Shown one piece after another: positions 24,001 to 30,000 of a DNA stretch of 38,017 bases. The stretch covers positions 1-38,017 of the IMG/VR virus record IMGVR_UViG_2534682157_000008; one strand, given 5' to 3'. Position numbers: made by a program. Source of the DNA: a virus. Taxonomy: Duplodnaviria; Heunggongvirae; Uroviricota; Caudoviricetes. Position 1 is the stretch's first letter; each line of letters begins with the position of its first letter.

Positions 24001-27000
24001 TGCGAGGAATCGGTTCAGTAGTGCTTATTGGTACCACTGTTACCAATTGATTGTTGTGTCTGTTTCTGGACACGACTACCACTGGCCTGACCTTGACTAT
24101 TTCCGGAACAACCATTCCCCGAAAATCACACATTAAAACAGAACGAACAGACGGCTGATACTTTAACACCATAAATCTCTTTGCCTGATAATGACGACTT
24201 GTGAACTCCACTACAAACAAAATGATTCTGCTGAACAGGCAGTTTCGCACTGTACATTATAACCTGTTAAGCCAACAAAAAAACCCGCTCGGCGGCGGGG
24301 TTTGCTTACTTTGCCATCGCGTACAAAATCGGCAAAATATCAGATTTACATGAAATATATGCTTTTTAATCCAGTTTTGCAATATTTTGCTGTGAAAATG
24401 TGGTCTTTTGTTTTGAACGTGTTTTCGTTAAAAGCAATAAAGCTTGGCTATCAAGCTGTAGAAAAATGTGCTTCATTGCAACCCAGCGTTCAGTAAATGT
24501 CTCAGACCAGTTTTTTGATGTCACTCCCACCAGTGATGCCAGATCCCGGTATTCATAACCTTCCCCACCAAAAAGCTCAGCTTTTACCGCTTGCGCCGCC
24601 AGCCAGATCAACTTCTTCAGACGTTCCAGCGTTTTCCCAGCTATTTTTCTGGTACCGGATTGAGTATTAAATTCATTCCACGCCCACTGCGTTATCGCAA
24701 TCTGATACTCCCAGCAAATGTTTCCGCCGTAACACCACAACAACCACGCCTTCTGATGCGCTTCCAGTTCCAGAACTGCACGTCGCCATGATGATGTCGA
24801 AAACTCAACCGGACTGACCAGAGCAATTGACGTCCCTTTCGCCAGTGATTGTTTACCCGGGATCGGTGGGTTATCCCGCGTGATCATTTTTCCGGTTACC
24901 TCATCGCGGTAACGAATTTTTTTGCGTCTGTAACGCCCTGTATCGAACAGTGCATTTTCCTGCCAGGCTTCCAGTTGGCCTTTTATCGACACACTGAGAT
25001 CCGCAGTGGCAATCATGAGTTGCTCACGAACAAACTGTAAATACTGGTTATTCATGCACACCCACCTCTGTAATTCTTATCTCCAGCCGTCCACCAGATA
25101 CTGGCTGGCCACGTACAATATTGATTTCATCAAACTGCTCATCGTCCATTAACAACCCTGCATGCGTCAGCGCATCCAGCGGCGCTTTCAGGATATTATC
25201 CAGGTCACGGCGGCGCTTATCCGGTGGCTCTGCAATCACCTTTATCGCCAGCCTTCCGGACAGGCTTAATTTCAGCCGCTGCTGGCGAACAATAAGCGCC
25301 ACTGCCCGGCGATAGCGCTTTCCCTCCTCAGATATAAAATATGTGCTGCCACGACGTCGCCAGTAAGTATTCACCGTCGGTGGATAAGGCAAAACAAACT
25401 CTATACGCATCAGTAACCTCTTTTACCCAAGCACGCCGGTTGCAAAGGCGTGATCAAGAAAACGAAAAATTAACTCAACCTGAGAGCCGTACTTTTTCTC
25501 AAACTCCAGCGGGTCTGCATGAAGTTCGTTGTGATGTTCCCGGCACAACGGTAGCGTGAAAATATCGTGGGCCTTTGTCCCCATTCCCCCCTGACCATGA
25601 CCAATCAGGTGATGCGGATCGTCAGCAGGCTTACCACAACACGCACACGGCTGTGTCTTTACCCAGCGCGTGTATTTCTCATTAACCCAACGGCGACGTT
25701 TAGGCCGCTTCATGAACGATTCAGGAGACTCCGGATCAACAGCGATACTGACAACCGTTTTTTCTGTGGTGGATTTTGTTGCTGGTGGACGTGAAGTGGC
25801 AGCGCAATATTTTTTGTGCGCTGCTTCAGTATGCTGATGGCTGTCTGTTCTCCCGGTACGATGTCACTCTCACGGTATACGGAGCGGATTTTTTCCGCTG
25901 GTAATCCCAGCGAACGACGCGCTACTGCCTCAGGTAATGCATCCACCACCTGATTGCAGGCCGCCCACCAGGATAATTCGGCCAGCGATAATTCACGCTC
26001 CTGTGTGCCATTCATTGCGTGACGAATGACGTCAATCATCCATGCTGACAGGTTTTGGTGAGCAAGTTGCTCAAGTGATTCGGAGGTCTGGTCACGCAAC
26101 TGGTTGTCGCAGTGCCAGCACAACACCATTGCGCCGGTACCATAACGGTGAATGACGGTTTCACTGTGGTGATAATCGCCGTGTGGCCACTGGCAGGATT
26201 TAACATGGCGCAGTAACCAGTCAGACAATGCGCCAGCGCCACCAGCAGCACGAATCACTCGTTCGTCGCTGAAAAATGGCAGTAATGATTTATCCTCCGC
26301 CAGCGGCTGGCGAACGGCAGGAACGACCCCGGACGGCAGATTACGCATGCTTTTCGGTTCCGGCTCCACCAGTACCCGGGTATTGTGGAATACCGGCATG
26401 GATTCACGGCCCGGCTTAACGATCACCAGCCCGAGTTCCGGTACCAGAACAGGTCGAAGTAATACCCGCACGTTACCTCCAGATGCGTTGCTGGAATGTG
26501 CGGGACGGACGCGGTGGGCGTTCAGAGTAAGGAAGCCTGACGGAGATTATCCAGTGACGGTAGTCGAGGCTAAGGGCTTTTTTAACCTCGTATCCGCGCC
26601 TGCGGTAACACTGAATGAGCCATTCGGCCTGTTCTTCAGTGCATGGGGGATGCTGGTACCAGTCAGATTTGAATGCGTGAAAACACCGTCCGCGCCTGCT
26701 GGCAAAGACGGCTGAATTATCAGAATTGTGTAATTTGGTATCGTGCGCCATCGGTTGTCTCTGCTGGCGCAGCAGGTGCCAGTTGTTCAGGCTGGTGTGC
26801 GAATTGTAAACCAGAATGCTAGGAAAAACAAAACCCGCCGAAGCGGGTTAAGTGCGGGTGCGTTGAGGATGCCTGACACATCAGAGGTGGCGAGGGATTC
26901 TCCCCATAAGCGCTAACTTAAGGGTTGTGGTATTACGCCTGATATGATTTAACGTGCCGATGAATTACTCTCACGATAACTGGTCAGCAATTCTGGCCCA

Positions 27001-30000
27001 TATTGGTAAGCCCGAAGAACTGGATACTTCGGCACGTAATGCCGGGGCTCTAACCCGCCGCCGCGAAATTCGTGATGCTGCAACTCTGCTACGTCTGGGG
27101 CTGGCTTACGGCCCCGGGGGGATGTCATTACGTGAAGTCACTGCATGGGCTCAGCTCCATGACGTTGCAACATTATCTGACGTGGCTCTCCTGAAGCGGC
27201 TGCGGAATGCCGCCGACTGGTTTGGCATACTTGCCGCACAAACACTTGCTGTACGCGCCGCAGTTACGGGTTGTACAAGCGGAAAGAGATTGCGTCTTGT
27301 CGATGGAACAGCAATCAGTGCGCCCGGGGGCGGCAGCGCTGAATGGCGACTACATATGGGATATGATCCTCATACCTGTCAGTTCACTGATTTTGAGCTA
27401 ACCGACAGCAGAGACGCTGAACGGCTGGACCGATTTGCGCAAACGGCAGACGAGATACGCATTGCTGACCGGGGATTCGGTTCGCGTCCCGAATGTATCC
27501 GCTCACTTGCTTTTGGAGAAGCTGATTATATCGTCCGGGTTCACTGGCGAGGATTGCGCTGGTTAACTGCAGAAGGAATGCGCTTTGACATGATGGGTTT
27601 TCTGCGCGGGCTGGATTGCGGTAAGAACGGTGAAACCACTGTAATGATAGGCAATTCAGGTAATAAAAAAGCCGGAGCTCCCTTTCCGGCACGTCTCATT
27701 GCCGTATCACTTCCTCCCGAAAAAGCATTAATCAGTAAAACCCGACTGCTCAGCGAGAATCGTCGAAAAGGACGAGTAGTTCAGGCGGAAACGCTGGAAG
27801 CAGCGGGCCATGTGCTATTGCTAACATCATTACCGGAAGATGAATATTCAGCAGAGCAAGTGGCTGATTGTTACCGTCTGCGATGGCAAATTGAACTGGC
27901 TTTTAAGCGGCTCAAAAGTTTGCTGCACCTGGATGCTTTGCGTGCAAAGGAACCTGAACTCGCGAAAGCGTGGATATTTGCTAATCTACTCGCCGCATTT
28001 TTAATTGACGACATAATCCAGCCATCGCTGGATTTCCCCCCCAGAAGTGCCGGATCCGAAAAGAAGAACTAACTCGTTGTGGAGAATAACAAAAATGGTC
28101 ATCTGGAGCTTACAGTGGCCATTCGTGGGACAGTATCCCTGACAGCCTACAAAACGCAATTGAAGAACGCGAGGCATCGTCTTAACGAGGCACCGAGGCG
28201 TCGCATTCTTCAGATGGTTCAACCCTTAAGTTAGCGCTTATGGGATTCTCCCCCGCCTGGTCTCTTACTCCTCAGGTTCGTAAGCTGTGAAGACAGCGAC
28301 CTCCGTCTGGCCGGTTCGGATTCGTACCTCGCAGAGGTCTTTCCTCGTTACCAGTGCCGTCACTATGACGGTTAAACAGATGACGATCAGGGCGATTAGC
28401 ATCGCCTTTTGCTGCTTCATAGCCTGCTTCTCCTTGCCTTTCGGCACGTAAGAGGCTAACCTACGTGTGTAGAGCATAGATATGGCCTCAGATTAATGTT
28501 AAGCGTCTTGCCGGACGCGTAATGTTAACTGGGGCTTTTCTCTATCTGCCTTTTGGTGTTCATGCCTGAGACAGATAGCCTCAAGCACCCGCAGTCATTC
28601 TACCCGTTTTAGATTTCTCAGCCAACTTTATGCTCACAACATATACAAATTTCCCGGTTAAAGCTCATCATGTTAGATAGTTTTTGCGTACGCACTATTT
28701 TTTTATGTAAACTGCGCAAAAAAGTTTAGCACCCTAAATTGTTAAGGGAAAGTTAAGGAAGTGTTAATGCTTGAGCAAACAGTAAAAAACATCAATTCAC
28801 GCTTTGGCTGGCGCAACACCCGTAAGCTTCTTGGTTCATCACTGGGTGTAACGGCCCAAGGATTACCCCTTTTTATTGAACGTGTAAATAGTGTAGTTCA
28901 GCATAATCCCGACCTAAAAGACAGAATCGACGATTTCTGGAAAGGTTTAATTTTTAGCGGGAATCGATTACTTTCTATTTATAGAATCACCGATGAAGAC
29001 GTAGCAAAATTACAAACAATTTTCACAAATCAGAAAAAGGACAATAGCCCCTTCTCAGAAAAATACCCAACTCCTTTATCCAGAGAGGAGCTGTTAGTTG
29101 CTGATACTGAGCTGCATTTTGCTGAACTACGTCAAGATATCATTCGTGATAAACAAATTGACACTGCTGTTTTTTTATCCAAAGCGTATTACACTGAAGT
29201 GATAGAGCTTGACCCAACACATCTTAGCGATGCGGGTATGGAATTACGTGCTAATGGTGGAGAAATAAAATGCAAAACACGCCAAGTCACGCAATGCTTT
29301 AATACCATCATGCTAATGCCTGCAGAAAAATATTAATTCTTACGATTGATTTATCTATCCTTCCAAGAAGTGAATCACAGCCTCAACAATACCTTGTGGC
29401 TAAATTTATAAAAAAAGAAGCTGGCGTTATTTTAAACAATCCTCTTGAATTATTTGGTTCAATACAAGATCTTTACGAAAAAGTAGATGGCAGAATTTCT
29501 CATGTATCTTTTATCACCTCAGATGGCAATACAAGTTCTTTAAAACTCAAACCAAGTCAAAAGTGTTTGCGTCAAGATGTTTACCATCATAGTGGAGAGT
29601 CCGCAAGCCCAATATTGACAAAGTTTAAGTTGGGAAAAATTTGGGATTTACCACAAAGTTCTTCACATATTTTATCAGTAGAGTTAATATTACCAGGAAA
29701 AAGGACAATGCTTGATAATCCTAGAATTAGGTTGCATGAAGCAATTGCGAAGAACTGTAACAACATTGATTCGATTATATTTATTGTTGAAAAAATATTG
29801 GATTCTGTTAAGTCCTGTGAAGAGAAAAGAAGAGCGAGATCATCAGGCCATAAATGAAAAAGAGTATATATCACGACATTATCACGCAAATAGAGCAGGA
29901 TTTTAATGATCCTGTTCGCAGTGTGTGTCGTGATCTTTTTCTTTTTCTGGTTAGTAAAGATGCTAAAAATATCAATCACTTTACATACAAAACCCTTATC

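Follow-up and report, generated by a model that had tools for sequence, protein, structure and literature searches.

The DNA analysed here, IMG/VR virus record IMGVR_UViG_2534682157_000008 (class Caudoviricetes; positions 1 to 38,017, hereafter the window), is prophage DNA that carries a hok toxin gene with a copy of the insertion sequence (IS) IS186 directly beyond its stop codon. We describe the two elements and their junctions, then the predicted effect of the insertion on the hok mRNA, and finally how often IS186 occupies such sites in Escherichia coli.

The hok locus and its IS186 insertion

The hok gene lies on the minus strand at 28265-28420, with its stop codon at 28265-28267, and encodes a 51-aa toxin that is identical to K-12 HokD (RelF, b1562) and matches the Pfam family HOK_GEF with 82.9 bits (cut-off 22). 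Related genomes annotate the gene as hokD (WP_000813254.1). A mok-type open reading frame (ORF) of 70 aa, at 28265-28477 on the same strand, forms an in-frame upstream extension of hok, the layout also seen in K-12 mokC. Further upstream, the leader of the hok mRNA (28415-28590, minus strand; predicted mRNA start at about 28590) has tac at its 5' end and contains the Sok target, and it matches the Rfam model RF01794 'sok' over the full model, with 117.1 bits against a gathering score of 59. A promoter-like site, TTGGCT-17-TAGAAT, is found just upstream of the leader at 28625-28597 on the minus strand. The predicted Sok antisense RNA occupies approximately 28469-28545 on the plus strand, its coordinates having been transferred by alignment from the annotated K-12 sokC; a consensus promoter scan flagged no plus-strand promoter for it in this region, which aligns with annotated K-12 sokC. 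The hok, mok and sok sequences equal those of the IS-free ST648 allele except for one base. With these parts the locus forms a complete type I toxin-antitoxin module (hok/mok/sok), unlike K-12 hokD, so that the name hokD given in the first-pass annotation fits the protein and not the organisation of the locus.

IS186, a member of the IS4 family ('IS421 family' in PGAP), occupies 26905-28242 on the plus strand if it is taken as a 1338-bp element with the canonical 23-bp terminal inverted repeats (IRs) CATAAGCGCTAACTTAAGGGTTG. Its unambiguous core (26906-28241, 1336 bp) has no substitutions relative to the 1337-bp core of IS186A and IS186B of K-12 MG1655, and the sole difference, one deleted G near 28114, lies outside the coding sequence, past the transposase stop (28072) and before the right IR; the original identification of the element thus stands. 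The IRs had been called perfect, and a repeat search of the window indeed returned two 25-nt arms (26903-26927 and 28220-28244) that are 100% complementary. The palindromic GGG/CCC target contributes the outer 3 nt, so that 22-23 nt of each arm are IS186 sequence. Chance alone would give no occurrence of the IR core ATAAGCGCTAACTTAAGGGTTG in the window, where it stands exactly twice, at the two ends of the element.

The transposase gene (InsL-type, 370 aa) runs from 26960 to 28072 on the plus strand, convergent with hok, and its product matches Pfam DDE_Tnp_1 (93.7 bits, E 1.6e-26, cut-off 23). The frame is open throughout in the window, and a near-identical copy in strain N51 is annotated as an intact protein (WP_001300563.1). 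With an intact ORF, perfect IRs and a perfect duplication, the copy is probably of the active type and capable of transposition. PGAP marks the IS186 copies of two CDC assemblies, 2013C-3181 and 2013C-4991, as 'frameshifted', while those of the window and N51 are intact. In the copy of 2013C-3181, a C7 run of the transposase ORF is shortened to C6 (window-equivalent 28030-28036), a loss that may also be a homopolymer error, as proposed below for the A/T runs of the window. We considered a disrupted transposase frame for the window as well and rejected it, as the window lacks the C7-to-C6 loss of the 2013C-3181 copy.

The element is flanked by two 100% identical 12-nt direct repeats, GGGATTCTCCCC, at 26894-26905 on the left and 28242-28253 on the right. 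The canonical 23-bp IR (CATAAG...CTTATG, 1338 bp) claims the terminal C and G for IS186, which leaves a duplication of 10 bp, GGATTCTCCC, at 26895-26904 and 28243-28252. The target duplication reported in the first-pass annotation is therefore real in that the same 12 nt stand on both sides, while its length depends on how the IS ends are defined: it is 12 bp only if IS186 is taken as 1336 bp, and the window sequence allows 10-12 bp. The repeats derive from a conserved GC-rich stem-loop, GGCGGGGGAGAAUCCCUCGCC in the mRNA, that lies directly 3' of the hok stop codon. This target, AGGG-ATTCTC-CCCC, is of the expected GGG-N6-CCCC type and agrees with 7/8 specified bases of the IS186 consensus, GGGG(N6/N7)CCCC as quoted in a citing paper (PMC6925257). 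Exactly 11 nt (28254-28264) separate the hok stop codon from the right repeat copy, in agreement with the earlier estimate of about 11 bp.

On the far side of the element lies what used to be the end of the hok mRNA. A displaced segment of the 3' untranslated region (UTR; 26850-26893, minus strand), with fbi (CCUCAACGCACCC) at about 26858-26870, is now 1.35 kb from the gene; it is 98% conserved with the 3' UTR of K-12 hokD. It is followed by the native rho-independent terminator of the hok mRNA at 26822-26849 on the minus strand (AACCCGC-TTCG-GCGGGTT plus T-tract), whose stem spans 26849-26832 and whose T-tract extends down to about 26822. In the uninterrupted sequence this terminator starts 67 nt after the stop codon, close to the 70 nt first estimated, and it is found at the same distance in empty sites; in the window it is cut off from hok by IS186. 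For transcripts that read through from hok, the first consensus terminator-like hairpin inside IS186 is GCCGGAAAGGGAGCTCCGGC followed by TTTTTT, a pattern match only, at 27671-27690 on the minus strand, about 575 nt past the hok stop.

The decisive comparison proposed in the first-pass annotation was with relatives that lack the element. We searched 5426 complete E. coli genomes with a probe in which both flanks are joined with one repeat copy. The uninterrupted sequence (GGCGAGGGATTCTCCCCCGCC) was found in one piece in 3375 of them, and ST648 (99.7% identical) and E2348/69 both read GGTGGCGAGGGATTCTCCCCCGCCTGGTCTCTTA, with the target present once. The insertion with both its flanks was found only in 2013C-3181 and N51, plus a fragmented, partial match in SY3626. 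Because the window prophage is near-identical to that of N51, and because the exact insertion occurs in only 2-3 genomes, a single recent event in a small lineage accounts for all of them. The insertion is, by these comparisons, genuine and recent, as had been supposed, and it may serve as a useful lineage marker common to the window, 2013C-3181 and N51.

Folding of the hok mRNA and the predicted effect of the insertion

Neither hok and mok nor the Sok target and the promoters are touched by the insertion, which places 1.35 kb between the hok ORF and the last ~70 nt of the mRNA, which hold fbi and the intrinsic terminator. We rebuilt the uninterrupted mRNA by joining 28590 to 28254 with 26905 to 26824 on the minus strand, giving 419 nt. 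In its predicted minimum-energy fold, nt 1-12 (GGGUGCUUGAGG, tac) pair with nt 375-387 (fbi) in a duplex of -21.5 kcal/mol, and the 3' end is closed by the terminator hairpin. The same tac/fbi architecture has been described for R1 hok (PMC9841398). IS186 removes all of the hok mRNA 3' of about nt 349, and with it the fbi side of this pairing, in line with the link to hok 3'-end folding drawn in the first-pass annotation. When interrupted transcripts were folded with four different end points inside IS186, the predicted 5' end was always held in one local hairpin (nt 3-13 with nt 19-29), which the native mRNA is also predicted to adopt when it is cut before fbi, and the tac/fbi pairing was lost. 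A replacement fbi supplied by IS186 was rejected: the candidate is weak (-17.9 kcal/mol) and is used by no minimum-energy fold.

With these folds in mind, a sequence of effects can be proposed. Transcripts from hok would run antisense into IS186 and end there. Without the 5'-3' tac/fbi clamp, the interrupted mRNA would fold like the 3'-processed 'active' form. As it could not be stored in the inert clamped form, it would behave as the processed, Sok-bound form, and delayed killing would consequently be lost: the unclamped mRNA would be bound by Sok and degraded, and would not be kept as a stable, translationally silent pool. The locus would then lose its delayed killing, whether post-segregational or triggered by shut-off, and stay harmless. 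We consider it very probable that IS186 transposed into its preferred hairpin in a prophage hok/mok/sok module and severed fbi and the terminator from it, with the loss of delayed killing as the outcome. The last step, functional inactivation of hok, we infer from the folding model; a loss of the stable inactive mRNA pool, and hence of post-segregational killing, is what the model and the parallel with related loci predict.

Such parallels exist in K-12, as the first-pass annotation had noted (PMC12214031, PMC7232551, PMC3562002). For gef/hokC, the mRNA reportedly ends within IS186, which is believed to disrupt fbi there (PMC3562002). In two papers that cite Pedersen & Gerdes 1999, K-12 hokA, hokC and hokE are given as inactivated by IS elements that lie near, not in, their reading frames, and the E. 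coli B locus hokX is described likewise, as inactivated by a nearby IS (PMC12214031, PMC7232551). By analogy, the fate of the window hok would be the one proposed for K-12 hokC and hokE.

Several points weigh against this interpretation. Its functional step rests on RNA-folding predictions and on analogy with R1 hok and K-12 hokC, and IS186 read-through offers tac a weak alternative partner (-17.9 versus -21.5 kcal/mol). The window target, GGG-N6-CCCC, is an imperfect, 7-of-8 match to the consensus, and the counts of occupied genomes given in the next section include shared descent, for example of the hokC insertion inherited across K-12-like strains. In addition, K-12 gef/hokC is still transcribed and antisense-regulated although interrupted by an IS (PMC3562002), so that 'inactivated' may overstate the effect. 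Finally, chromosomal hok loci free of an IS did not bring about post-segregational killing in earlier work either, as summarised in a preprint (bioRxiv 10.1101/2025.08.07.668861), and the loss may for that reason be of little consequence.

The last two of these points, together with the match of the window hok/mok/sok to the IS-free ST648 allele at all but one base, also speak for an alternative in which the insertion is neutral for hok. The toxin-antitoxin pair would then still work, or would have been inert already; Sok control would be kept, the mRNA would acquire a new 3' end inside the IS, and the site would be a tolerated landing pad. We regard this as unlikely, since the transcript has physically lost fbi and the native terminator, and in every predicted fold of the interrupted RNA the 5'-3' clamp, the hallmark of the stable inactive form, is missing. 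One prophage-borne hok/sok module is thus marked as probably disabled, which matters little for this genome.

Recurrence of IS186 at hok 3' ends and the prophage setting

In one respect the first-pass annotation has to be amended. The site is not incidental: the conserved hairpin is a recurrent hot spot of IS186, which enters it in both orientations. K-12 hokC, K-12 hokE and a third allele (LR-64-1) are each occupied by IS186 at the homologous hairpin, and each has a 12-nt repeat of its own in a perfect GGGG-N6-CCCC. Strain 2013C-4991 has the hok allele of the window, but its IS186 is inserted the other way round and is flanked by an 11-bp duplication, an independent hit on the same site. This sister insertion also shows that the terminal G belongs to IS186, and its 11-bp duplication fits variable-length duplications at a single target, which were reportedly the subject of a study by Sengstag et al. 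in 1986, to go by its title.

The extent of the association was estimated with 300-nt junction probes in which IS186 abuts a hokC/D-type gene. The junction was found in the orientation of the window in 829 genomes (867 records) and in the opposite orientation in 938 genomes (952 records), plasmid copies and shared descent included. An internal IS186 probe counted 8483 copies in 2204 of the 5426 genomes. At least 1819 copies (867 + 952 records), or 21%, thus sit at the hokC/D-type hairpin, on chromosomes, prophages and plasmids alike, and 43-80% of the genomes that carry IS186 have at least one copy there. Homologs of hok/sok have been found near insertion hot spots of mobile elements in a population-scale study of E. 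coli (bioRxiv 10.1101/527788).

We attribute the repeated presence of IS186 beside hok loci to a sequence preference of the transposase that coincides with a structured RNA element, of which the window, with its matching empty sites, is a very clean example. One may tentatively go further, although we are doubtful, and propose that in E. coli the post-stop stem-loop of hok is where IS186 chiefly lands in nature, with an association that goes beyond target preference: either IS186 persists in a harmless site while riding on mobile elements, or hosts have repeatedly been selected to disarm hok. If the landing-pad proposal were true, hok loci could further be shuffled through IS-mediated recombination between occupied sites. 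In genome annotation, hok genes with IS186 at this hairpin could be marked as 3'-disrupted.

An observation on the phage-like plasmid pW150_2 (NZ_CP163044.1, locus 1263-2600) belongs here. Its IS186 adjoins a hokD-like gene and has flanking repeats that differ from each other, GGGATCTCTCCC on the left and GGGATCACTCCC on the right, the right flank resembling the hokC allele. The mismatched repeats suggest homologous recombination between IS186 copies parked at different hok loci.

Taken separately, the idea that selection to disarm hok toxins, beyond the target preference of the transposase, explains the recurrence at hok 3' ends seems to us improbable. At least six independent occupied hok sites, in both orientations and spread over three chromosomal hok genes and plasmid-borne copies, would agree with it, and Durrant et al. 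suggested that mobile elements may commonly disrupt hok/sok as an adaptive strategy. Yet the hairpin in hokC, hokE and LR-64-1 is the exact IS186 consensus and is sufficient for recurrence, the insertions always spare the hok ORF, IS186 behaves alike at the lon promoter hot spot, and 3375 genomes keep the site empty.

The prophage itself is lambdoid and adjoins ompW, and by comparison with related annotated prophages the insertion falls within the nin region and upstream of DUF968-RusA-Q. The window and the N51 prophage are almost identical from position 23503 on. The stretch 21688-23502 is more diverged from N51 (48/53 mismatches), and 1-15078 and 19883-21687 did not align to the N51 prophage stretch that was compared. 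Left of the Q region, the prophage is a mosaic. Positions 28761-31000, which separate hok from a second antiterminator gene of the Q family, hold three hypothetical plus-strand genes; the first of them has no Pfam match. Opposite in direction to the surrounding early genes, they form a moron-like insert. Elsewhere in the window, Rfam models place the small RNA STnc100 at 20108-20315 (minus strand) and DicF antisense RNA at 36480-36531 (plus strand), and three phage tRNAs lie at 21730-21981 on the minus strand: Arg-TCT, Arg-TCG and a tRNA with a CAT anticodon (Ile according to PGAP in relatives). These RNAs are typical cargo of lambdoid prophages.

This setting raises the question of whether the insertion acts mainly on the prophage. 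IS186, 1.3 kb long and with a minus-strand terminator-like hairpin (27690-27671), separates the early-right genes from DUF968-RusA-Q on the same strand, and in this view it would lower Q expression and prophage induction. The gene order and strands of related annotated prophages do put the site between the replication/nin genes and Q. We nevertheless hold a main effect of this kind to be very unlikely: the native hok terminator is already in the path in IS-free prophages, and the three plus-strand genes interrupt it as well, so that even there read-through to Q must rely on antitermination. An outward promoter of IS186 toward DUF968/RusA/Q was also considered and rejected, as the promoter scan flagged none.

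Relative to N51, the window has lost one base in each of seven A/T runs of 6-8, at 25757, 26823, 29325, 30895, 31268, 34167 and 37033. The loss at 26823 falls in the T-tract of the hok terminator. Two genes are truncated by these losses: the DUF968 ORF has 253 aa in the window, where relatives have 349 aa annotated, and the gene to the right of hok has 191 aa rather than 363 aa. These A/T losses are probably sequencing errors, not biology. We asked whether the window is simply N51 or 2013C-3181 and rejected this: it is 99.6% identical over 16.3 kb and differs by homopolymer indels. Although such losses show that the assembly is not error-free, an assembly artefact, with a repeat-collapsed or misplaced IS copy, can be dismissed, because two independent complete genomes share both junctions and the flanking repeats with the window, and true transposition leaves just such a mark, a perfect duplication of a sequence that empty sites hold once.

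Comparison with known systems

The kind of event described here is already known; what is new is a complete hokD-type locus on a prophage with the same IS, at the same position and with the same predicted effect. The closest counterpart is IS186A at hokC (gef) of K-12 MG1655. There, as in the window, an IS that differs by one base has its transposase convergent with hok and sits in the stem-loop just past the stop codon, flanked by a 12-nt repeat (GGGATCACTCCC in hokC), with fbi and the terminator displaced to the far side. Unlike the window locus, hokC is a core-chromosome site, between dnaJ and nhaA, with about 89% DNA identity at the junction probe and a perfect GGGG-N6-CCCC target. IS186B at K-12 hokE likewise sits in the homologous hairpin, there about 18 nt beyond the stop codon, and is flanked by a 12-nt repeat (GGGAGTAATCCC); in contrast to the window, its transposase is co-directional with hok, and hokE is a more distant hok paralog.

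K-12 hokD (relF), in the cryptic prophage Qin, offers the complementary case. It encodes the identical 51-aa toxin, has DUF968/YdfU and Q downstream, and its DNA is 98% identical to that of the window over the part that begins at the hok Shine-Dalgarno sequence and takes in the hairpin, fbi and terminator. Its IS186 target, however, is empty, and its upstream mok/sok/tac region is absent, with relBE there instead. The window locus, unlike K-12 hokD, has a complete 5' regulatory region and a disrupted 3' end.

Outside the hok family, the lon promoter hot spot resembles the window locus: there, too, sequence-directed insertion of IS186 recurs in either orientation at a GGGG(N6/7)CCCC motif and duplicates about 10-12 bp. 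The insertions at lon destroy a promoter, whereas the insertion in the window severs an RNA element of a 3' UTR. The hok/sok system of plasmid R1 shares with the window the promoter, the 5' tac, a mok frame that overlaps hok, the antisense Sok (a predicted RNA in the window), the post-stop hairpin, fbi and the terminator; unlike the locus described here, it is plasmid-borne and uninterrupted.

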